Sequence record: OQ708376.1
Direction: 5' to 3' (one strand)
DNA length: 64,000 bases
Source of the DNA: Escherichia phage vB_EcoM_CRJP21
Shown: positions 25,320-46,249 of the stretch, in pieces
How positions within the stretch are numbered: the stretch's first letter is position 1
Layout of the letters: every line of letters starts with the position of its first letter
Position numbers and translations under genes: made by a program
The notes under the pieces: model-generated
What the model saw: only the letters and a program-made list of their open reading frames with translations
The model's database searches: none
What the model was told of the DNA's origin: nothing

Positions 25320-25423
25320 TTCATTTGAAGACATATTGTGGAGTTCTTAATAAATACTTTTATAAGAATAATAATACTTTTTATTAAATTAAAAAGAACT
25401 CCATGTGTTATTTCAGTTTTTCG

Positions 25424-25450
25424 TCCCTGTCTTTTGGCAGGGATTTTTTA
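25424..25450 (+). terminator. intrinsic terminator
   Basis: CCCTG-tcttttgg-CAGGG then TTTTTT; preceded by a long AT-rich hairpin 25340-25403. Confidence 0.55.
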
Positions 25451-25545
25451 TATCTATATCTTGACAAAAGGAACAAATCATGAGAACATGTATTAAAGGA
25501 AGAATGACTTTCCATTAGGTTATTTTAACTTAAAGGAGATTTCAT

Positions 25546-32559: not shown

Positions 32560-32892
32560 ATGGATTTAAAGCCAATTGTGGTTAACAAATACAAAGAACC
32601 GTATGATGTGTATATTGGACGTGGGTCTAAATGGGGAAACCCATTTACCCATATTAAAGATAAACAAACCAAAGCCGAGTTCATTGTTAGTACAAGAGAA
32701 GAATCAATTGAAAAATTCAGAGAATACATTATTGAACGTATTTCTTGTGGAGAAGTTAAGATTGATGAATTACTTGAACTCGCAGGGAAACGCCTTGGTT
32801 GTTTCTGTAAACCAAAATCATGTCACGGCGATGTTCTTGTCGAAATAGTGAGTGCAATATTAGATGAATTACCAGACGATAATCAAGGATGA
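32560..32892 (+). CDS. hypothetical protein (possibly DUF4326-like)
   Basis: 110 aa; YDVYIGRGSKWGNPF motif. Confidence 0.5.
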   Translation: MDLKPIVVNKYKEPYDVYIGRGSKWGNPFTHIKDKQTKAEFIVSTREESIEKFREYIIERISCGEVKIDELLELAGKRLGCFCKPKSCHGDVLVEIVSAILDELPDDNQG

Positions 32893-33336: not shown

Positions 33337-33362
33337 TAAGCACCCGTTGGGTGCTTTTTTAT
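33337..33362 (+). terminator. intrinsic terminator
   Basis: AAGCACCC-gtt-GGGTGCTT then TTTTTT. Confidence 0.65.
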
Positions 33363-33368
33363 TATGTA

Positions 33369-33376
33369 TATAAATA
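33369..33376 (+). promoter_or_regulatory. T4-type late promoter motif TATAAATA
   Basis: exact TATAAATA ~35 nt upstream of ATG 33411. Confidence 0.45.
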
Positions 33377-33410
33377 CATTAACTAATATCTAATTTATAA
33401 GGGATATATA

Positions 33411-36107
33411 ATGTCAAAGAAAATATATGGTGGCTTAGATGTCACACATAATGTGACAGTTAATGGTAAAAGAACAATTCAAGGAATAAATGAACAAGTT
33501 TTTGATTCCAACGGTAACTTGGAATTAGATACTTATTCCAGAGATGAAGTACTAGATATAGTAAGTATGATGCCAATCTCCCATTATGGTTCACAAAACT
33601 ATCTACCTGCGGGTGTATCTGGGGATTTCAATGGTGCATCAGAAAACCAGTCACAACGTAGAAATAAAATTTTATTAGAAAACGATGGTACACTAGTACT
33701 TTTACGTAGTGGGACAAACGGTAGTGTTGAGGGATTATTTTATTCATATTTGGCTAACGCATTATCAGTTGATGACATGAGCCGTACAATTAACACTAGT
33801 CGTCAATACAAGCCTGGGTTTTTTGGTTCAAATAGAGTTGCGATTGGTTTATACAATACTGATCCAAATATTTTACTCGGTAGATATATTGATACTTCTA
33901 ACAGTACTAATGGTTTGTTCATATCAATTACCAATGGTACATTAGATGATAAATTGCATACTGGTTTTTTCGTTAACCAAGCAGATATATCACCTGAAGG
34001 TGGTATTGAATATGCTATGATGGCAGAAGATGGTTCTATATATGTTTTTAACGTACTTAATGAAAATAACCAACTACAATTAGTTGTTGTTAAAGTTGTT
34101 TATAATATAAGCAATGGTACTTATACTGCAACTCGAATTACTGGATGGACTACAAAAACATTCTATAATACAACTTATTCTGCACAGAATAACATGGTTA
34201 TTACTAATCAAGTAACTTCAACTAATATAGCAGATAAGCCTTATGTGTATGTACCACAAAACCTACGTGGTATTGGGATTTATATGACATCCATTGATTT
34301 GTATGTTGCACAGCAACCAGGAACACAGAACTTTCGTTTTAGAATGAATGGTGATGCATGGTTTACAATGGCGACATATAATGTCCGACCACAACATAGC
34401 TACAGCTTTGCATTTAATATGAGTACTAAACAATGCACCCTAGACGCTGGGAATGACATAGGTTCATATCAAGCACCATTGGTTATAACCAATACTGGCT
34501 CTGCATTAGTGCCTACAGGTAACGTTTTAAATAATGATCCATTATATAATCATGCTGGTGCAAGAAACATTTATAGTTCATATTTTTATTTGAATTCTGG
34601 TGAAGCTTTTTGTACTGCATGTCCAAACTTAGCAGAACCATTACTTATGCAAAAAGCTAAGTTTCCTATTCAAATAGTTTATAGTATGCTGAATGTCCGT
34701 GCTGTACTTTCTACTGACTTCAAAGGTGGTATAGTTCGCCCGTCTTTTGGTTCAGCGGTTGGTTCATTTATTAATGGTGTAGAATTACTACCAGATAACA
34801 GTACTAAACAATATTCACGTGCATCAGGTAGTGGTGGATTTAGACCATCATATGCAGTTCATAAAAGTACTCCTAATTTTACATTTAAATCATTATCTTT
34901 AGGAACAATACAAGGTTATGAACCTACAGTTGAACGTGCTAATGTTGATGATAATGCAAATAATAGAATTTTTATTAGTAGTATTTCTGGGTCAACTGTC
35001 ACAACCAATGGTGGTATTTTTATGGTTGGGCAACGTTATTCACAATCATTATCCTATGATAAAAACTTAAATGGCACAGGAATTATAAGCGTTACACAAT
35101 CAGTACTGGACAATTTTAGAAATACTGAATATGCCAAAGTTCTAAGTGATTGGAATTTATCAGCACAAGCATACCGTGATATGACACTATTTGTTCCACA
35201 ACAAACAGACATTCCAGCTTTTGTTATGTTGAGTACAATTACTAATGATTATAGAAACTATATTAGAATTGCTGAAGTTAATGTCAATACTAGAGTTGGT
35301 AATATTACATCTATTACATTTAAGCGTTTAGTACTTGAGAATACGTATGGTGATAACTTTACACCAACTGGGAATGGTTCGATTGCATCTTCTTCTGTTG
35401 GTTTGACAATATATGATGGTGGTTCATTCTACTTCATTGGTGGTTCTGACCCATTATCACATCCAACAATAGGTAATACTGCAACTCATCAATTTAGAGC
35501 ATATGTAACTAAATCAACTGCACAATTTACAAGTTTTATAATTACTGGTTCTCATGCCAGTTATGAACAAGGAAGTCAACCAGCAGCGTTACCTGGTATT
35601 GGTTTTGGAATTTTTGAACCAATGGATTACTCAAATAAAATGACATTCAAAAAATATGGAACAACGATTGCAGACTATAATAACTGGACTGCACAAGGTA
35701 GCCCAATTAACGTAGTATCCCAGGACGTTGCTCAAGGGTTTATTGTATATTTTACAGAGGAAACACCAGTTATTCTTTCAGGTAAGTCATTTTCACTACC
35801 AGTTTCAAATATTGATTTGAGAACTATTAAGTCTAATCCAGCAAATACAACATTTTATGTATATGTTAAATTGGAACAAGGATTGGCAAACTATTACATA
35901 ACTACTGATGTTATTTCTGAAACAGGAACAACTGCATATAATATTTTTTGGATAGGTACAATTCAAACTAATGCAATTCAAATCGAAACAATTAATATAC
36001 AAAAACGTTCCCGTTTAGATATATTTGGTGCTTCACTTGAATCAGCAGGTTCATCGTTCCCAGTTAGCTACGGTCTACCATCACAAACAGGAACCATAAA
36101 CTGGTAA
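33411..36107 (+). CDS. large structural-like protein (putative fibre/adhesin), paralog A
   Basis: 898 aa, S/T/N/G/Y-rich; N- and C-terminal modules shared with 36119 and 36723 proteins. Confidence 0.5.
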   Translation: MSKKIYGGLDVTHNVTVNGKRTIQGINEQVFDSNGNLELDTYSRDEVLDIVSMMPISHYGSQNYLPAGVSGDFNGASENQSQRRNKILLENDGTLVLLRSGTNGSVEGLFYSYLANALSVDDMSRTINTSRQYKPGFFGSNRVAIGLYNTDPNILLGRYIDTSNSTNGLFISITNGTLDDKLHTGFFVNQADISPEGGIEYAMMAEDGSIYVFNVLNENNQLQLVVVKVVYNISNGTYTATRITGWTTKTFYNTTYSAQNNMVITNQVTSTNIADKPYVYVPQNLRGIGIYMTSIDLYVAQQPGTQNFRFRMNGDAWFTMATYNVRPQHSYSFAFNMSTKQCTLDAGNDIGSYQAPLVITNTGSALVPTGNVLNNDPLYNHAGARNIYSSYFYLNSGEAFCTACPNLAEPLLMQKAKFPIQIVYSMLNVRAVLSTDFKGGIVRPSFGSAVGSFINGVELLPDNSTKQYSRASGSGGFRPSYAVHKSTPNFTFKSLSLGTIQGYEPTVERANVDDNANNRIFISSISGSTVTTNGGIFMVGQRYSQSLSYDKNLNGTGIISVTQSVLDNFRNTEYAKVLSDWNLSAQAYRDMTLFVPQQTDIPAFVMLSTITNDYRNYIRIAEVNVNTRVGNITSITFKRLVLENTYGDNFTPTGNGSIASSSVGLTIYDGGSFYFIGGSDPLSHPTIGNTATHQFRAYVTKSTAQFTSFIITGSHASYEQGSQPAALPGIGFGIFEPMDYSNKMTFKKYGTTIADYNNWTAQGSPINVVSQDVAQGFIVYFTEETPVILSGKSFSLPVSNIDLRTIKSNPANTTFYVYVKLEQGLANYYITTDVISETGTTAYNIFWIGTIQTNAIQIETINIQKRSRLDIFGASLESAGSSFPVSYGLPSQTGTINW

Positions 36108-36118
36108 AGGATTACATA

Positions 36119-36706
36119 ATGGCATATAAAATAAGAGCAGACCTTAAGGCAATGCAACAAGTTACAGTTCAGGGTAAAAGTACTGGTCTTGGTGTATTAG
36201 GTAATAATATGACTTATTACCCAACAAATTCAAATGGGGAATGTACATTCCCCTCTATTACCAAAGATGAAGTTAACTTTATTGTCAATGGATTACCACT
36301 TACACAATACGGAGAATTGTATGATGACGCTAGTCTAAATATTACTTCATCAGGCTATAGTCTTACATTTAATAGACAGATACCATCATTTATTGGTGGT
36401 TATCTTTATAAATTTCCAGCAGTTTCTATTTTTGCTTCAACTGTTTCATCTGGAACACAAACACAATACGTATATGCAACGTTAGTTCTCGGTGAACCAA
36501 TTTATAAAATATCACCAACACAAATACAAGAATCTGAAATTATAATGTTTATTGGAACACTGACCGTTGGTACAAGTGGTATTACAAATATAAACATTAA
36601 TAAAGTATCCAGATTTAGTACATATAGACCTAGTGTTACACAAAAAGGTTCTTCATTCCCAGTCAGTACTGGAAAACCATCAGAAACTGGTACAATTGGT
36701 TGGTAA
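36119..36706 (+). CDS. short paralog of fibre-like family
   Basis: 195 aa with the shared C-terminal module (RFSTYRPSVTQKGSSFPVSTGKPSETGTIGW). Confidence 0.5.
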   Translation: MAYKIRADLKAMQQVTVQGKSTGLGVLGNNMTYYPTNSNGECTFPSITKDEVNFIVNGLPLTQYGELYDDASLNITSSGYSLTFNRQIPSFIGGYLYKFPAVSIFASTVSSGTQTQYVYATLVLGEPIYKISPTQIQESEIIMFIGTLTVGTSGITNININKVSRFSTYRPSVTQKGSSFPVSTGKPSETGTIGW

Positions 36707-36722
36707 ATTAAGGAAAAGAAAG

Positions 36723-39452
36723 ATGTCATCAAAACGAATTATAGGAAGTGCCGAGATCCTTGGGAACTTGGCAATTGGACAAAGGTACGCTATGCGTACT
36801 TTTAATGGAACCTCACCGAATGCCAATACTGGAATTGTTCAATATCCAATATATAAGCGTTCAGAAGTTCAAAGTATTTTAGATATGTTGCCTATATCAC
36901 GTGTAGGAGAAATGGATTACTTGCCATTAAACGTAAGTGGGTCGTATGAAGGTGCTACACCTATGTCAAGTGACCAAGTAGTTCAGCCAACAATTATTGA
37001 AGATGATGGAACCGCCGTTGTTCTGCGTAGCGGAACCAATGGTAGTACTAAAGGTTTTTATTATTCATTTATACGAGAACTCCGAAATATAACTATGATT
37101 TCACAAGAAAGTGTTATTTCCACCAATTCAATGTATAAACCTTCAATTATGAGTAGTACTGAAAATATTAAGTATTTTATTGGCTCTAATGGTTATGAGA
37201 TGCTTGGATGTTTAAGTACAGAAGATAATTATATTTTCACTTTAACAAATGGTACATTCAACGAAATTTCACATATTCACGCTAAAGTTCCAAGTACATC
37301 ATTTGGAAATGATATGCCATTATACGTTCATATTGTAGGTTCTAAAGTATATATTTGGTGTAAAGATAAAAGTGTTTCTAATTTAGGATTAGCACTTTCA
37401 ATTTATACAGTAGAGCTAAGTGATGTGAAAGCAAGCTCAATGGCATCATTAACAAAAGTTACTGGATTATCAGGGCAAACTGTTCGAAATACAAGTTATT
37501 CTGCATCTAATAACATAAGAGTGTTTGATAGATTATATAGTGTTGGTACTAGCTCGGATTCATTATTCGAAGTTACATCACCAGTCTCACGTGTAGAATT
37601 TTCGGATTATACAGACTTTAATATACAAGCAAACGTTAGTACTGATTTATCCAAAATACGTGTAACTTTATACCCAACACATAGAATGGTTACACCTTTA
37701 TATATTTCAACAGTGTATGGTACTGGTATCAGTTTTGTTTATAATATAAACTCAAAATCTATGTCACTAGATGGTTCTGCTCGTGCTCCTGCGACAGTTT
37801 CATATAATAATGGCTTCCAAGTTACAAACCCATTTGAAATAGATATGGTAAACTTTACTGGAACAACAGCTACCGGAGTTTTAGGTAATGCTGGTGGGTT
37901 ATGTCAAACAAAAGATGGTCTTGTATTTGCATCTAAATTCAGATGGAGTTCTACTGAATTTTATGGTTTACAAAGATATAAAGTTAATGGTACACCATTT
38001 GATTCATGGGTAGCCAGTACTAGATCCGCAAGTAACGTTATAAATACAAACGTTTTACCAGTTTTTGGTAGTGCTGTTGGTGCAAACCTATTAGGTGTAC
38101 GTTTCATCGATAATAGAAAAATATTATTAGCATGTTCTGGTACGTATGATGATGTAACATATAATTATAATAATACTGTTTTTTCTGAAATAGGCCCACA
38201 ACCAACATATCAATATAACTCAGTTCAACATAATACTACATTAAATGGTTTTGCACCACAATCTAATCGTAAACAAATAGGTGATGATTTTACATACACT
38301 GCTATGATTTCTCTTGTTGATACCGATGGTAGTGTTAGATGTTATGGAACATCATTCATTGAAGGTGTATATAAAACAAGTGGTGGATTATTAAACCCAG
38401 ATACTTTAGAATTTGATGAAACATATACAATAGAACCAACGGTATTAGAATCATTAAAACAAGATATTTTTGCTAATCTAGGAAACTCTGGCATTGTTGG
38501 TACACTATCTGGACAAATTGTATTATATTATGTACCTGATAATACTTTTTCTAAATCCATTGCAGTAGTTTCAGCATATAATCTTAACAATAACCAAGGT
38601 TATGCAATTTATGCCGAAGTTGATGTTGTATTATCTGGATCTAACATAACTTCAGCTACATTGGTAAGTACTAGATATGAGACACTTAGTTCTGTTACAG
38701 GAATTATTACTGAAGCATATATGAAACGTTGTACTGGTCTAACAGTTGCTAAATATTCAGGATTTGGTTATATTGGTGTTGATGCAGTTCATCAATTTTC
38801 ACAACCAGGTAATGCACAATTTAAGATGATGATAGCTAAAACAGTAAATGGTGTCATAACATCAAATCGTTTTTTATCATCTAGTTACATCCAACTCGGT
38901 GCAGCATATCAACATGGTGTTATTCCTGGTGTTGGTTTTGGATATTACAATTTTCAAGATTCTGACTATCAAACCAAATCTGTATTCAGCGTTTTTGGTA
39001 CAACATCTGCTGAAATGGATGGTTTAATTAGCGGAAATGGTAGCGTTAAAGAAAAGATTGTGGTAGTATCACAAGACGTTGCACAAGGATTCTCAGTGTA
39101 CTTTACACGTGAAGTTCCGGTATTTTTAGGTGGAATTTTCGACAGACTACCTATACAAAGTGTAGATTTAAGTACTGTAAAAAATAATCCAGCTAATACT
39201 ACGTTCTATTTGTATATACAAATGAACAGGAATACTAAGAAAGCTTCATATGTTATTAGTACTGAAACTATTGATGAATCTTTAACTAGCACTTACATTG
39301 GTAAGATAGTTACTGGAACTTCAGGAATTACTTCGATTGATACTGAAAAAGTGACTCGTTTTTTGACATATCGCCCAAGTACAACGAAACGTGGTTCAGC
39401 GATACCTGCCAGTACTGGTGTACCGTCTGGGTCAGGCACACGTTGGAAATAA
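36723..39452 (+). CDS. large structural-like protein, paralog B
   Basis: ATG 36723 after AAGGAAAAG; ~909 aa. Confidence 0.5.
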   Translation: MSSKRIIGSAEILGNLAIGQRYAMRTFNGTSPNANTGIVQYPIYKRSEVQSILDMLPISRVGEMDYLPLNVSGSYEGATPMSSDQVVQPTIIEDDGTAVVLRSGTNGSTKGFYYSFIRELRNITMISQESVISTNSMYKPSIMSSTENIKYFIGSNGYEMLGCLSTEDNYIFTLTNGTFNEISHIHAKVPSTSFGNDMPLYVHIVGSKVYIWCKDKSVSNLGLALSIYTVELSDVKASSMASLTKVTGLSGQTVRNTSYSASNNIRVFDRLYSVGTSSDSLFEVTSPVSRVEFSDYTDFNIQANVSTDLSKIRVTLYPTHRMVTPLYISTVYGTGISFVYNINSKSMSLDGSARAPATVSYNNGFQVTNPFEIDMVNFTGTTATGVLGNAGGLCQTKDGLVFASKFRWSSTEFYGLQRYKVNGTPFDSWVASTRSASNVINTNVLPVFGSAVGANLLGVRFIDNRKILLACSGTYDDVTYNYNNTVFSEIGPQPTYQYNSVQHNTTLNGFAPQSNRKQIGDDFTYTAMISLVDTDGSVRCYGTSFIEGVYKTSGGLLNPDTLEFDETYTIEPTVLESLKQDIFANLGNSGIVGTLSGQIVLYYVPDNTFSKSIAVVSAYNLNNNQGYAIYAEVDVVLSGSNITSATLVSTRYETLSSVTGIITEAYMKRCTGLTVAKYSGFGYIGVDAVHQFSQPGNAQFKMMIAKTVNGVITSNRFLSSSYIQLGAAYQHGVIPGVGFGYYNFQDSDYQTKSVFSVFGTTSAEMDGLISGNGSVKEKIVVVSQDVAQGFSVYFTREVPVFLGGIFDRLPIQSVDLSTVKNNPANTTFYLYIQMNRNTKKASYVISTETIDESLTSTYIGKIVTGTSGITSIDTEKVTRFLTYRPSTTKRGSAIPASTGVPSGSGTRWK

Positions 39453-39457
39453 TTTTA

Positions 39458-39486
39458 AAGCTCGTCTATTGACGGGCTTTTCTTTT
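39458..39486 (+). terminator. intrinsic terminator
   Basis: AGCTCGTC / GACGGGCT stem then TTTTCTTTT. Confidence 0.55.
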
Positions 39487-39519: not shown

Positions 39520-40086
39520 ATGGTTAAATCTTTGCTACCACCACCAAAACGTCATAAAATCAAAGAAATGAAAGAACAACGTACATTAAAGATGTACAAC
39601 AATTTAGTTCAGTTACTGTGTAAAAGTCCATCGCTCAAAGCAGAGTTTAAAACTGATGATGACCGCAAAGCACTAATTGAGATGAAGTATATGCTCAGTA
39701 AAATGTCCTTTTACAAATTTGTAAAAGAATACACAACTGACCCATTTAGTCCTCGTTGGAGATCCAAACCAAGAGAGTATTTTTACGGTGGTTCATATAC
39801 GGATCGCATTCAAGACACAGTGATGGGAGTTGAATTTGAAATCGATTATGAGCCGAATGGTGTGGAAAGCTGGCCGATTGAGAAACGTTTACCAAGTGAA
39901 GAAGAAATTTATGTTTATGCAAGAAAACTTTCAAATTTCAGTTCAAGAATTACTCTAGGCAATTTAGATTCATTTATTATTTTCTATACACGTGTTGGTG
40001 TAGATAAAATGGTAACTAAACTCAATGAACTTTCATTACAACAAAAACAGATTAATGCATACAAAGACATTACTGATTTATACTAA
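39520..40086 (+). CDS. hypothetical protein, tandem paralog 1 of 3
   Basis: 188 aa; shares a conserved segment with the next two genes. Confidence 0.5.
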   Translation: MVKSLLPPPKRHKIKEMKEQRTLKMYNNLVQLLCKSPSLKAEFKTDDDRKALIEMKYMLSKMSFYKFVKEYTTDPFSPRWRSKPREYFYGGSYTDRIQDTVMGVEFEIDYEPNGVESWPIEKRLPSEEEIYVYARKLSNFSSRITLGNLDSFIIFYTRVGVDKMVTKLNELSLQQKQINAYKDITDLY

Positions 40087-40098
40087 TGAGGAATGGAT

Positions 40099-40614
40099 AT
40101 GTTTTTTGGATCAGTTGGAAAACAAAACAGTACTTTAATTTGGCATGAAATTATCTTTAAAATTATATCTAAAAGCTACTCACTAAAGGATATTATTACC
40201 ACAGATAATGATAGACGTATCCTGTTAGATGCAAAATATAAATTGAGCAAACACCCTTTACTTTCTTTAATCATTGATTACGTTTGTGATTATGAATCTA
40301 GTCGTTGGAAGTGGGAAGACGGCGGTTTATTTCGTGGAAAAACATTCTACGGTGCGGAACGATATGTTTTCAGTGATACATCAAATGGCGTTAAGTTTGT
40401 TATTAGAAACTTTAACTCCAAAGAAAATGATTATCTTGAAAGTGGAGTGAAAGTATATATCGATAATAATAGCAATGTACTAACATATGACGAATCACTA
40501 ATTATGTTACAAATAATGCGTGGTGTTGAAGGTGTAAGAAACAACCTTACTAAATTGAAAATCCAGCAAAATGATATACATAATAGACAGAAAATTAAGG
40601 GTTTATATAAATGA
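40099..40614 (+). CDS. hypothetical protein, tandem paralog 2 of 3
   Basis: ATG 40099 after GAGGA (alternative ATG 40093). Confidence 0.5.
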   Translation: MFFGSVGKQNSTLIWHEIIFKIISKSYSLKDIITTDNDRRILLDAKYKLSKHPLLSLIIDYVCDYESSRWKWEDGGLFRGKTFYGAERYVFSDTSNGVKFVIRNFNSKENDYLESGVKVYIDNNSNVLTYDESLIMLQIMRGVEGVRNNLTKLKIQQNDIHNRQKIKGLYK

Positions 40615-41120
40615 TTTCATTTTTCAAAAAGAAACAAAAAGTTGATGAAACCGGATTAGAATCGTTTCTATGGACTCTTATCATCAAAAAAAGTCCATTG
40701 ATAAAAGAATATGCTATCAATGATGCTAATAGAAAAACTATCATTGAATACAAATATGAATTATCTAAATGTGATCCAATTGTTTATCACTTTGCGAAGT
40801 ACTGTTCAAAAAATTTATCGGATATCACAATCTACCACGAGTCAGTCCCAATGAGTTTTCCTTATGGTGATTGGGTAGATACTTTTGATATTTTTGATGG
40901 GTCAAATGGTTTCAGTTTCTTTTACTCGTCAAATAAAGCAAGTGTTCGTATTAAAACAGACATAGGTTGGACAAAGCATAGCTCAAATAAAGAAGATTAT
41001 AATTTATTAGCTGACGTATACCGAAGTGTGAAGAATTCAAAGGATATTGATGAAAGAATTAAAAAGCAAAATCGTATATCTTTATCACTTGAAACATACA
41101 AGTCAAAGTATGGTGGTTAA
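40611..41120 (+). CDS. hypothetical protein, tandem paralog 3 of 3
   Basis: 169 aa. Confidence 0.5.
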   Translation: MISFFKKKQKVDETGLESFLWTLIIKKSPLIKEYAINDANRKTIIEYKYELSKCDPIVYHFAKYCSKNLSDITIYHESVPMSFPYGDWVDTFDIFDGSNGFSFFYSSNKASVRIKTDIGWTKHSSNKEDYNLLADVYRSVKNSKDIDERIKKQNRISLSLETYKSKYGG

Positions 41121-42753: not shown

Positions 42754-42921
42754 CATATACAAGTGTAATGGTACTAAAAATGCCATTACACTCAATAAAT
42801 ACTCAATATAAATTAACACAAGGATTAAGTATGGCACAACAAATTTTCACAGATATCCACACTACCGGAGTTATTAAATTTCAAAATAATTTTTCTGGTG
42901 CTACTGGTGTAGACATTAAAA

Positions 42922-43458
42922 ATGATGGTTTTAACATTGTCAGTACTCGGATCTATTGATGGTGAAGATAGTTCTCTTAGTGATTCTGTGATTGCATCAT
43001 TCGGAACTAATAAAAACAGTTCTTTTATTATATCTGGATGGACTGGAATGACTGATTCTGAAAATAATGTTAAGATAAAAGCTAAAGCTACTAACGAGAA
43101 TCATGAAACAGAATGGGTAACATTATATGATAGTGCAAGTAATAAGTTATATAATGTATTAAGTTCTAATAATATTTTAATTAATCCACTGTCGGGCAAT
43201 GCTGTTTTTAATATTAATTTATCTGATAGAAATACTACTATTTCGATTGGTGCGGCTCCTACTGAAGTTTATTCAATTACCATCCTATTAACACAACAAA
43301 CAGGTTCAAACCTAGTTAATTGGGGTTCTAATGTTAAATGGTCATATAACAGACCAGTTGTTCTTTCTTATGAAATTGGTGAAAAAGATATTATTTCATT
43401 AGAAACATATGATAAAGGAGTTACATGGTACGGTGCATTAATTAGAGCAGGAGTATGA
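42922..43458 (+). CDS. hypothetical beta-rich protein (possibly fused to upstream ORF 42831-42959 via frameshift)
   Basis: no RBS at 42922; upstream ORF with AAGGA RBS ends at 42959 in another frame; A5 run at 42918-42922. Confidence 0.4.
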   Translation: MMVLTLSVLGSIDGEDSSLSDSVIASFGTNKNSSFIISGWTGMTDSENNVKIKAKATNENHETEWVTLYDSASNKLYNVLSSNNILINPLSGNAVFNINLSDRNTTISIGAAPTEVYSITILLTQQTGSNLVNWGSNVKWSYNRPVVLSYEIGEKDIISLETYDKGVTWYGALIRAGV

Positions 43459-43459
43459 T

Positions 43460-46249
43460 ATGTTAAACAATAATATTGATAATATTGTACAACTTCTTTA
43501 TGGGCATCACAAATTTATTGAAAGAAATACTGGTGATACAATAGACCCAACAGTACAACATTATGTGGTGAATAATCAGGGTGTTTTGGCGAACAACCGT
43601 CATTTTATTAACTATTCTGCAATGGAAGGTCAACCAAACGGTGACGGGACAACAGAAGGTCAAAGTCTATTAATTTTGGGATACATTTATGCGTATCTGG
43701 CAACAAATGATCCAATGTTTTTAGATAAAGCCAAATGGTACTGGGATGCATATCATCAGTACTTTTATGCTGGACGTGAATTACCAGACCCACCAACTCC
43801 ACTTCAATGTAACTGGATAGTTAATGCCAAAGAACCGATTTTGGCTAACTGGCCTTTAGCTGATGATGGATGGCCTACACATGGTGGTTTCAAGGGTGTA
43901 GAATTTACATTTACAAATGGACAATGTAAAATACCACATGGTGCACCTTATTATGGTCAGTTCTTGGATAAAGTAACATTCGCATTCAAAGGTGCTTTAG
44001 CATGGAACCAAATAAATGCGTCAGTAAAAGCATTACTACCAGATGGTAGTGTTGATTGGGATACCCCTGGTGATCAATATGATGTTGACTGGATTATTGA
44101 TTTCATGGGTAGAAAAATCGACTGGGATGGTAATATTTTAGCAGAAGGTTTTGACGAATCTGAAAAAGGAACGGTTCAATTAAAAAATACAACAATTAAT
44201 GGTGTATATAAATTAAATTTTGCTAATCGTCAACCAGTAGAATATGGTGGTGTGATAATTCAACGAAATGAAATGCAACACAACCGACCACTTCATGTTC
44301 CAATTGATTTGGAATTTGCGGATAATGCATCAGATGCAGAATTGTGGTTTAGTGATGCTTCTTATTTGTTATATAAAATAACAAAAGAAAGAAAACATTA
44401 TTTGGGTTGGAAATGTTCATTACTCACATGCTATGCTTATGGTGATATCGACTCCAGAGATAAATTTTTCAGACAAAGTACAATTGTAACCACACCATTC
44501 ACTGATGGTATTTCCTATGAATATTTTTATCCAAGTGATGCTATCGCTAAGTTTGGTAGAAATTCTTTAGGATATATTACTATCAGGCAAGACCAAAGTG
44601 CACAAAGTACAATGGAACAACAAGCTATTTGGTTCAGGGTCAATGCTGATTCTAAATTACTTGTAGATTATGGTGGTGTATGTGATGATGGTAAGCCGTT
44701 ATCATTTAAACCAGTACTGGAATTGTCTAAAACAAAAAATGATCATGATGTAGTAAGATATCGTTGTGGATTACCAGAAAGTAAAGACCAAAATATCACA
44801 CATTCATTAACACCTTTAAGTGCATTTGTTAGAGAAAAGAAAGCAGATGGTTCCCCTTATATAATTGCTGATAGTAGAATAGTTGTTCCTTATGGTGCAG
44901 CTACGTCCGAAATGATATATAGTACTGATATATTAGTTACACGCCGAGATACCATTAATCAGTTAGTTTGTGGTGAAGATGATGGTGCTGTTATTGGATT
45001 TTGGCTATTAGCAACAAATAAGTCTGAAGTTAAATCTTTTACATATCGTTCATATGAAGATGATTACAATATAAGAATTGTAGATGATAATGGTTGGAGA
45101 TGGTGGTGGATGATTCCTGCAACACACGGGGAATGGACTACAATCACACTAAGTTCCGATACATTACGTTTATCTGGGTATCAGCCAAATCATCCAAGTT
45201 CTGACCCAAGACCAGATGCACCAGTATATAGTGAGCTAGAAGATATTACTATTTTACCTGATACAACCCCAGTAGATGGTGTTGCTGCAATAATTGATTG
45301 GTATTGTATTAATGACATTCCAGAATTATATACGGATGCTGACGGTGATGACTATACTATGACATTTTCAATAACAATTGCAGGTGAATCACCATATACT
45401 GCACAGTTAGGGGATTGTGTAATCAAAGATTATTTGTTAAACTCATTGCATTACACACCAGGAACAATACCATTTTCTAACATCACTGACCCGTATGCGA
45501 ACCAGTACTCAGGTTGGCGTGGTTTACCGTATCCAGGTTATCAATATCCAGTGATATATTGTTTTAAAGACCAGCCAGTAGATAACACACGCTTAGGAAA
45601 CATGTTAAGCTTTATGAAAGATTCCCAAACATGGTTTACTCAACAATTCGGTACTGTTGGTCCGTGTGCACAAGCATATGTTTGGAACCGCTGGGATAAC
45701 TTAAAATATGGTGAACCAGATACATTTACTATGCTACATTGGGGTGATCAAGCATGGAGTGGGTATGAACCACGTGCGTTCTTTGGGGCTGCCAGAGCAT
45801 GGCAAGAACTCGCAGAGAGAGGAATTGAACCACCAGCAGATCTTGTTGAATTTTGTGAGAATTGGATTCACTTTTTAATTCAATTTCAAAAAGATAATGA
45901 TGGTCGTTCACCAACAATCTTCAATAAAGATGGCACAGTTGAAGGTCCAGATTGGGACTTTACAGGTCATATGTGTGGGTTGTGGTTAGCTGGGGCTTGT
46001 GCTGCTGGATTGGCTGGATGTAAAATAGAAGGTCTAACAACACTCGCTGATAACTTAGTTCTCGAACTTCAAAAGAATTATGTTATTGTAAATCCAGGTT
46101 CCCCAATGAATGGTTCATGGAGTCCAGCAGTTAGAGAAGGTACTGATAATGGTATGTTTTTTGGTTTCTGGGCAGGTGAGATTATGCGTGGATTGGGGTT
46201 ATACTCAATGTACCGTTTAAACACACCAAATCGTTTCCGTGATTTATAA
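43460..46249 (+). CDS. large hypothetical protein (Trp-rich)
   Basis: 929-aa ORF. Confidence 0.55.
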   Translation: MLNNNIDNIVQLLYGHHKFIERNTGDTIDPTVQHYVVNNQGVLANNRHFINYSAMEGQPNGDGTTEGQSLLILGYIYAYLATNDPMFLDKAKWYWDAYHQYFYAGRELPDPPTPLQCNWIVNAKEPILANWPLADDGWPTHGGFKGVEFTFTNGQCKIPHGAPYYGQFLDKVTFAFKGALAWNQINASVKALLPDGSVDWDTPGDQYDVDWIIDFMGRKIDWDGNILAEGFDESEKGTVQLKNTTINGVYKLNFANRQPVEYGGVIIQRNEMQHNRPLHVPIDLEFADNASDAELWFSDASYLLYKITKERKHYLGWKCSLLTCYAYGDIDSRDKFFRQSTIVTTPFTDGISYEYFYPSDAIAKFGRNSLGYITIRQDQSAQSTMEQQAIWFRVNADSKLLVDYGGVCDDGKPLSFKPVLELSKTKNDHDVVRYRCGLPESKDQNITHSLTPLSAFVREKKADGSPYIIADSRIVVPYGAATSEMIYSTDILVTRRDTINQLVCGEDDGAVIGFWLLATNKSEVKSFTYRSYEDDYNIRIVDDNGWRWWWMIPATHGEWTTITLSSDTLRLSGYQPNHPSSDPRPDAPVYSELEDITILPDTTPVDGVAAIIDWYCINDIPELYTDADGDDYTMTFSITIAGESPYTAQLGDCVIKDYLLNSLHYTPGTIPFSNITDPYANQYSGWRGLPYPGYQYPVIYCFKDQPVDNTRLGNMLSFMKDSQTWFTQQFGTVGPCAQAYVWNRWDNLKYGEPDTFTMLHWGDQAWSGYEPRAFFGAARAWQELAERGIEPPADLVEFCENWIHFLIQFQKDNDGRSPTIFNKDGTVEGPDWDFTGHMCGLWLAGACAAGLAGCKIEGLTTLADNLVLELQKNYVIVNPGSPMNGSWSPAVREGTDNGMFFGFWAGEIMRGLGLYSMYRLNTPNRFRDL

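Follow-up and report, generated by a model that had tools for sequence, protein, structure and literature searches.

An operon behind a late-promoter-like core of an Asteriusvirus jumbo coliphage encodes two long paralogues and a headless short one, candidate baseplate-anchored host-recognition proteins

The receptor-binding proteins (RBPs) of lactococcal phage p2 (ORF18) and of phage 1358 are built, in this order, of a shoulder, a neck and a head. The shoulder serves both for trimerisation and for attachment of the protein to the Dit arm, TssG or wedge proteins, and it is the baseplate-docking domain in p2, 1358, TssK and A-1(L) (PMC7291167; PMC10966104). Here we describe three consecutive genes, called g1, g2 and g3, in a stretch of 64,000 nucleotides (nt) of Escherichia phage vB_EcoM_CRJP21 (record OQ708376.1), referred to below as the window. 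The interpretation that we favour, and that we regard as rather likely, is that they form a late operon for baseplate-anchored host-recognition proteins and an anchor-only subunit (g2), placed in the host-recognition slot of Rak2-like jumbo phages.

Compared with p2 ORF18 and the 1358 RBP, with which there is no sequence similarity, the proteins encoded here carry the shoulder at the C-terminus, possibly discontinuous with an N-terminal segment, and the counterpart of the head is a propeller-rich stretch, about 700 amino acids (aa) long, that precedes the shoulder. The phage is a jumbo myophage of a Gram-negative host, and the trimeric state, the docking site and partner, and the ligand are features that we infer from analogy. 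TssK (and IglD) carries its shoulder at the N-terminus and, at the C-terminus, a head through which it binds the membrane complex; it contains no propeller and is a non-virion baseplate protein that belongs to the type VI secretion system. SPP1 gp22 has neither the N-segment nor the C-terminal peptide described below and is not a deletion derivative of a full-length paralogue next to it. In the long tail fibre gp34 of cyanophage A-1(L), an N-terminal shoulder is followed by a T4 gp37-like fibrous arm, again with no propeller. Sequence homology to these shoulder proteins (p2 ORF18, 1358, SPP1 gp22, TssK, A-1(L) gp34) was not detectable by Pfam or PDB searches. The RBPs of staphylococcal phages phi11 (Gp45) and P68 are similar in that they are baseplate proteins with a propeller as sugar-binding unit (Foldseek match 5efv_C, E=1.5e-4), but these are anchored by an N-terminal stem and carry one five-bladed propeller together with a tower domain; neither their sequence nor their overall architecture is related to that of the present proteins.

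True homologues are CBB_147/148/149 of Pectobacterium phage CBB, GAP32_143-145, Goslar gp026/gp028, Agricanvirus gp19/gp20 and Miami gp056/gp057 (PHROGs 3573, 26864 and 7449). They often occur in tandem, are annotated as hypothetical, structural or minor tail proteins, and are virion-associated by mass spectrometry (MS) in GAP32 and Goslar. All three copies are full-length in CBB and GAP32, while in Asteriusvirus the middle copy is cut to 195 aa and the Goslar members lack the C-terminal peptide. In phage RaK2 the same slot after nrdD-nrdG holds ORF525w-534, unrelated proteins annotated as tailspike-, lyase- and tail-fibre-like structural proteins. Judged by our searches, the family has no Pfam match, no PHROG function and no assigned role in the literature cited here. 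The parts, a shoulder anchor and a propeller head, are familiar; their order is inverted and a headless paralogue is retained. This makes it a variant, plausibly a new one, and it does not amount to a new kind of system.

Three paralogous genes and the origin of g2

The source phage is an Asteriusvirus, i.e. a jumbo coliphage of about 350 kb of the PBECO4/121Q/phAPEC6 type, with E. coli as host. The 6.2-kb block is 95-97% identical in 21 Asteriusvirus genomes (PBECO4, 121Q, phAPEC6, G17 and others) and about 76% identical in a second clade (WPEC3, Ecwhy_1, fEgEco12); in both clades the orthologues of g1-g3 are annotated only as hypothetical proteins. The genes and their parts are as follows.

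33411-36107, + strand: g1, 898 aa, full-length member, orthologue of phAPEC6 gp323c
33411-33605, + strand: N-module of g1 (aa 1-65), which contains DEVLDIVSMMPISHYG; P55 and G60 are invariant, and model confidence is low
33606-35693, + strand: centre of g1 (aa 66-761), all-beta, with at least one predicted beta-propeller; most variable part among orthologues
35694-36005, + strand: C-module of g1 (aa 762-865), predicted shoulder-type beta-sandwich, homologous to the core of g2
36006-36104, + strand: C-terminal peptide of g1 (aa 866-898), ending in GSSFPVSYGLPSQTGTINW; best-conserved block, disordered in the monomer model
36119-36706, + strand: g2, 195 aa, anchor-only paralogue, with N-module aa 1-67 (36119-36319), shoulder core aa 72-166 (36332-36616) and C-peptide aa 167-195
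36723-39452, + strand: g3, 909 aa from its ATG, second full-length paralogue, with N-module 36723-36923 and C-module plus peptide 39072-39449

The initial annotation had described three consecutive genes of 898, 195 and about 909 aa that share both termini; its observations were partly confirmed and its interpretation partly supported. The genes and their lengths proved correct. The shared C-terminal module spans about 120 aa, with 36% identity between g2 and g1 over 125 aa (E=1e-16) and 43% between g2 and g3 over 120 aa (E=6e-24). The shared N-segment, marked by LP[IL][ST]xxG, is also real but weaker (g2 versus g1, E=5e-7; g2 versus g3, E=1e-3), and its motifs had been listed in the wrong order, as SEVQSILDMLPISRVG is that of the 909-aa protein and KDEVNFIVNGLPLTQYG that of the 195-aa protein. 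The latter indeed consists of N-module and C-module only. The middles of the long proteins are rich in S, T, N and G (about 37%), as had been noted, but they are not unrelated: g1 and g3 can be aligned from residue 2 to the last one (27% identity, 957 columns, E=2e-61), and the middles alone are collinear, with 22% identity over 548 aa (E=3e-6).

Each of the two long proteins aligns along its full extent with PHROG 3573 (g1, E=5.4e-274, at 73-998 of the 1001 profile positions; g3, E=1e-264). g2 matches phrog_26864 (E=4.4e-115), and its C-module corresponds to positions 878-998 of phrog_3573. No Pfam match was found for g1-g3, and among 42 family members nothing appeared at E<=1 beyond scattered noise. 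Sequence searches of the PDB, with single sequences and with the family profile, gave no match. Similarly, the N-modules of g1-g3 matched no tail-fibre PHROG, and the whole proteins matched no fibre PHROG or Pfam family. A BLAST search against all six-frame open reading frames (ORFs) of the window revealed no further paralogue of g1-g3.

The origin of g2 could be traced with the help of the relatives. After nrdG, at the same place, the paralogues of CBB and GAP32 number three and are all full-length (902, 916 and 916 aa), and CBB_147/148/149 are listed as a paralogue group in the CBB supplements (PMC5259590). The best match of g2 is the middle one, CBB_148, for its N-terminal end (residues 1-67 on 1-67) as well as for its C-terminal end (79-195 on 798-916), with 105 + 48 bits; the scores for CBB_149 and CBB_147 are lower (90 + 28 and 54 + 33 bits). 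g2 therefore corresponds to the middle paralogue minus about 730 internal residues and, on this comparison, is a deletion derivative of it. It is not decaying, as its ratio of nonsynonymous to synonymous substitution rates (dN/dS) against WPEC3 is 0.19. Furthermore, a dozen clusters retain it, at 46-99% identity, and the order nrdG, 904 aa, 202 aa, next gene (large-short-large) is kept in a relative at 46% identity.

Predicted folds and presence of relatives in virions

Structures were examined as AlphaFold2 (AF2) monomer models. For g2, residues 70-165 form a core with a predicted local distance difference test score (pLDDT) of about 90, the ends being of low confidence. The g1 model (pLDDT 85.6; predicted template-modelling score, pTM, 0.80) is almost all beta and is unreliable only at residues 1-61 and 871-898. 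The core of g2, i.e. the C-module, adopts in the model the shoulder beta-sandwich fold of the RBP/TssK type. Foldseek gave no global match to the g1 model (template-modelling score <= 0.2) but showed a resemblance to the NanH sialidase, to the phi11 RBP and to tandem-propeller proteins. The propeller fold is present in the model, with 5-13% identity to the fold matches, and the best propeller matches are lectins and glycosidases, among them sialidases and members of glycoside hydrolase (GH) families GH130, GH43 and GH32. The g1 model contains no fibrous repeat and no beta-helical shaft; it is a compact, propeller-rich, multi-domain all-beta protein and therefore globular rather than fibrous, contrary to the fibre proposed initially.

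These matches raise the question of whether the centre could be an enzyme, a sialidase-like or GH-like depolymerase cleaving surface polysaccharide, which would make g1 and g3 functional analogues of the RaK2 tailspikes and not lectins. Sialidases and GH130/GH43/GH32 enzymes are indeed among the best fold matches, and the annotation of the syntenic RaK2 genes is of tail proteins resembling tailspikes and lyases. However, none of the 42 family members (42/42) had a Pfam glycosidase or BNR/Asp-box match and no catalytic constellation was identified; we regard an enzymatic centre as doubtful.

Published proteomes place several relatives in virions, as low-copy proteins; the Sharanji paper contains no proteomics. 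The g1 orthologue of phAPEC6, gp323c, was found with 4 peptides and 5.6% coverage (PMC7247149). In the phAPEC6 record (MK817115), intact orthologues of g2 and g3 (L001 8820-9407 and 9424-12153, equivalent to window positions 36119-36706 and 36723-39452) are unannotated, a 114-nt coding sequence being the only one listed in this region, and they are missing from the published virion-proteome database for this reason. GAP32_144 and GAP32_145 were MS-positive in GAP32 virions (supplements of the CBB paper, PMC5259590). In Goslar, gp026 was detected with 21 peptides at about 12.8 copies per virion and gp028 with 61% coverage at about 14.3 copies (Table S4, doi 10.64898/2026.04.21.720040); gp027 was present at about 13.8 copies, all of these numbers having an error of about +/-50% by the authors' own estimate (doi 10.64898/2026.04.21.720040). 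We identified gp026 as a full-length family member (tblastn match; C-module at 767-864, hhalign 95%) and gp028 (169 aa) as a short one (hhalign 94.8%, E=5e-8), whereas gp027 (161 aa) showed no significant similarity to the family. As gp028 is found in virions in amounts equimolar with gp026, the headless form is a virion component in one phage. The initial annotation had opposed to its structural reading the case of proteins absent from virions and homologous to non-structural enzymes; what is found is that the relatives' proteins are in virions, and no homology to non-structural enzymes was seen.

These data also bear on the function of g2, which might be an assembly chaperone or a decoy that mimics the anchor, helps g1 and g3 to fold or trimerise and is then released. 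g2 directly follows a full-length gene, as many fibre chaperones do, and this order recurs in other lineages; moreover, the phAPEC6 record leaves the orthologue of g2 unannotated, so that the published virion MS had no means of detecting it. Against a transient role, Goslar gp028 was recovered from purified virions, equimolar with gp026, and the short members form a large conserved class with a complete shoulder and, in most cases, the C-terminal peptide. We consider such a helper quite improbable.

Another proposal is that g1-g3 are, or carry, the whisker fibres that make the sheath and capsid of phAPEC6 and CBB 'hairy'. Both phages are hairy with hair proteins that are unassigned (PMC7247149; PMC5259590), and gp323c is an unassigned virion protein. 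Yet the g1 model is compact and globular, while a hair would be a fibre about 120 nm long; chimalliviruses have homologues too, with only about 13 copies per virion in Goslar; the low MS coverage of gp323c in phAPEC6 speaks against an abundant decoration; and the virion MS of CBB did not contain CBB_147-149 although the hairs are stable. An identity with the hairs is thus very unlikely. We disfavour the hair-fibre and the chaperone proposals because the model is globular, the copy number is low and gp028 is present in virions.

The genes of Goslar gp028, gp027 and gp026 are adjacent (L005 4872-8487) and the three proteins have near-identical copy numbers, which suggests a 1:1:1 complex, a point that the Goslar preprint does not discuss. 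An extended model, which we put forward as speculative and rather unlikely, is that the paralogues, instead of forming separate homotrimers, co-assemble through their shoulders into a hetero-complex of fixed stoichiometry on the peripheral baseplate, in which headless subunits (g2; Goslar gp028) would set the number of propeller heads per docking site. The shoulder would then be discontinuous, made of N-segment and C-module with the 700-aa head inserted between them, an RBP architecture inverted with respect to every known shoulder-type RBP, which would have been transferred horizontally between two unrelated jumbo lineages. The peripheral baseplate and the fibres of PhiKZ and Goslar are unmodelled in the 2026 electron cryo-microscopy work, and such a hetero-complex, if it exists, could explain part of the peripheral baseplate density for which these two phages lack a model.

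We also considered that arrays always comprise three family members. This was rejected, as Goslar gp027 is without similarity and Klebsiella phage Miami gp058 (L004 9973-13188) has only a weak C-peptide match. The latter protein is devoid of the shoulder module, and its residues 923-950 (YTRQGSSIPYTTGYPMDLGE) weakly match the C-peptide of the family (hhalign E=0.007, probability 5%). Possibly, the family's C-terminal peptide acts as a separable docking motif.

Genomic slot, rates of change and proposed role

In RaK2, a 10-gene tail-fibre/tailspike array (ORF525w-534) lies directly after nrdD, vs.6, nrdA.1, nrdG and ORF524. The slot after nrdD-nrdG is occupied by g1-g3 in the present phage, by CBB_147-149 in CBB and by the tailspike array in RaK2, which has no homologue of g1. 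Since RaK2 carries tailspikes at this place, the slot is a host-recognition cassette of Rak2-like phages. In chimalliviruses, the homologues adjoin fibre and baseplate genes; the neighbours are Peptidase_S74 and YomR-like genes in Goslar, a GH28 tail protein and a baseplate assembly protein in Miami, and a baseplate assembly protein in Deimos-Minion. One metagenomic locus has, in succession, members of 947 aa and 235 aa (a short one) and a tail-fibre gene, and the N-terminus of the 235-aa protein, which is from another lineage, matches tail-fibre PHROGs.

By tblastn, the family was found in 170 of 50,697 phage records, and all those sampled (60/60) are genomes of at least 184 kb. The matches belong to two unrelated lineages of jumbo phages, Rak2-like phages and PhiKZ-like chimalliviruses, to which the family is confined. 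A profile of g2 retrieved 551 clusters among 1.84 billion representatives, in two length classes of about 190-250 and 870-1170 aa. The module stands at the extreme C-terminus in g1, in g3 and in nearly all of the best 150 of the 551 clusters.

The three genes are under purifying selection. Compared with WPEC3, dN/dS amounted to 0.086 for g1, uniformly along the gene, 0.19 for g2 and 0.135 for g3; in g3 it was 0.18 in the middle and about 0.05 in the termini. No sign of diversifying selection was thus seen at the gene or region level (0.05-0.19), and this, like the near-identity of the close relatives, does not agree with the diversifying family that had been proposed. Amino-acid identity to WPEC3 is 86% for g1, 72% for g2 and 74% for g3, compared with 87-98% for the neighbour genes, so that no gene nearby evolves faster than g2 and g3. 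In the orthologues of g1, conservation is higher at the termini than in the centre. Conserved termini around a faster-changing centre are a layout that fits a receptor-binding family, so that this part of the initial proposal, which the shoulder fold and the RaK2 tailspike slot also favour, stands, while its fibre and diversifying parts do not.

In the mechanism that we propose, the N-segment and the C-terminal shoulder beta-sandwich of g1 and g3 would mediate oligomerisation and docking at the periphery of the baseplate, with a probable contribution of the conserved C-terminal peptide to anchoring. The propeller-rich centre of about 700 aa would bind, or possibly cleave, a glycan of the host surface. 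g2 would be kept as a headless structural subunit that either co-assembles with its full-length siblings or takes the same docking sites.

The main rival is that the proteins are purely architectural parts of the peripheral baseplate or tail, such as spacers or decoration, with propellers that serve protein-protein contacts and no direct role towards the receptor. The low and equimolar copy numbers of gp026, gp027 and gp028 in Goslar (about 13-14 each) would suit such parts, as would the strong purifying selection, above all on g1 (dN/dS 0.086), and a block that is 95-97% identical in 21 Asteriusvirus records listed with varied E. coli and Salmonella hosts. On the other hand, g1-g3 take the place of the RaK2 tailspike array, g2 and g3 change faster than any neighbouring gene, the middle of g3 evolves about 3 times faster than its termini, and the best propeller matches are lectins and glycosidases. 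We consider a purely architectural role to be unlikely.

Several points weigh against baseplate-anchored host recognition. CBB_147-149 were not detected by virion MS of CBB (PMC5259590); they are absent from the main text of that paper and figure in its supplements as a paralogue group and through the MS-positive GAP32 proteins (PMC5259590). [quoted passage not shown] The shoulder is C-terminal here, versus N-terminal in every known RBP or TssK. The propeller matches are generic, at 5-9% identity, and no ligand or catalytic residues were identified. The N-module and the C-peptide, likely interface segments, have a pLDDT below 50 in monomer models, from which the oligomeric state is not predictable. 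Finally, we infer, rather than observe, the baseplate location in this phage, the glycan binding and the role of g2.

The present analysis bears on host recognition by Rak2-like coliphages and by the nucleus-forming chimalliviruses. It gives a family represented in 170 phage records and 551 clusters a proposed role and a map (anchor, propeller head, headless subunit), and it nominates g1 and g3 as first candidates for host-range engineering of therapeutic Asteriusvirus phages.

Operon boundaries and the late-promoter-like core

Upstream of the block lie nrdD, a small ORF and nrdG. The following elements delimit the block and precede its first gene.

33338-33356, + strand: predicted intrinsic terminator after nrdG, 8-bp stem with 5 G-C pairs and a T-run; 5' operon boundary
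33369-33377, + strand: late-promoter-like element, with an exact T4-type TATAAATA at 33369-33376 and the conserved core ATAAATACA
33378-33410, + strand: leader with the invariant blocks TATCTAA and AGGGATA (ribosome-binding region), preceding the ATG of g1
39457-39480, + strand: predicted intrinsic terminator with a 10-bp stem, closing the operon

The gaps between genes are of 11 nt (g1-g2) and 16 nt (g2-g3), both terminators are strong, and the block is, by these signals, a single terminator-bounded operon behind a late-promoter-like core. The exact TATAAATA reported before the block is there, on the + strand, within the 76-nt spacer between nrdG and g1 and 42 nt 5' of the ATG of g1. This word is rare in the window, with 3 sites observed against 12.7 +/- 3.9 expected, and such under-representation means that a lone exact match proves little. 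What counts for the promoter call is its intergenic position and the conservation of ATAAATACA across genera. The spacer is about 95% identical to that of WPEC3, compared with 76% for the coding block. The order hairpin/T-run, ATAAATACA, TATCTAA, AGGGATA, ATG is the same in WPEC3, CBB and a metagenomic relative, all of which keep the hairpin and T-run 5' of the first gene. ATAAATACA, TATCTAA and AGGGATA are invariant in 4 genera-spanning sequences, whose orthologous proteins are about 45-86% identical (CBB-like ones about 45% to g1), while the first T of TATAAATA is variable, being C or A in relatives. A late-promoter consensus, ATAAATA, has been published for CBB and GAP32, together with a gp55-like sigma factor (PMC5259590), and ATAAATACA agrees with it. 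The conservation of the core and its match to this consensus make late expression of the block, as first proposed from the motif, well supported by comparison. A second promoter at the internal TATAAATA (38039, inside g3) was rejected, as this site is not conserved in WPEC3.

On the coding strand of the window ATAAATA occurs at 4 sites, 3 of them intergenic. The scarcity of TATAAATA and ATAAATA in a window with 66% A+T is consistent with an avoidance of promoter words outside promoters. A second intergenic ATAAATAC, at 42795, lies 36 nt 5' of a 42-aa ORF (42831-42959) orthologous to phAPEC6 gp315c, and the 929-aa gene that follows (43460-46249) is the orthologue of the tail fibre gp314c; gp315c (4.7 kDa, 69% MS coverage) and gp314c are MS-verified virion proteins of phAPEC6 (PMC7247149). 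The end of the 42-aa ORF is overlapped in another frame by a 178-aa ORF (42922-43458) that the phAPEC6 record leaves out, and a frameshift or an unannotated gene is possible in this region (42795-46249). The third intergenic ATAAATAC (region 25350-25545) has no gene within 196 nt downstream; what follows it is a TTGACA box and a hairpin of terminator type (CCCTGTCTTTTGGCAGGG with a T-run).

The small ORF between nrdD and nrdG (110 aa, 32560-32892) overlaps the start of nrdG by 29 nt and is conserved, with 95% identity in WPEC3; at this place RaK2 has vs.6- and nrdA.1-like ORFs. Directly 3' of the block, at 39520-41120, there are three tandem small paralogues of 188, 173 and 169 aa, which have a common KSxxxK...DxxR...KYxLSK motif and are 25-32% identical to each other; the first two share 91% identity with their counterparts in WPEC3.

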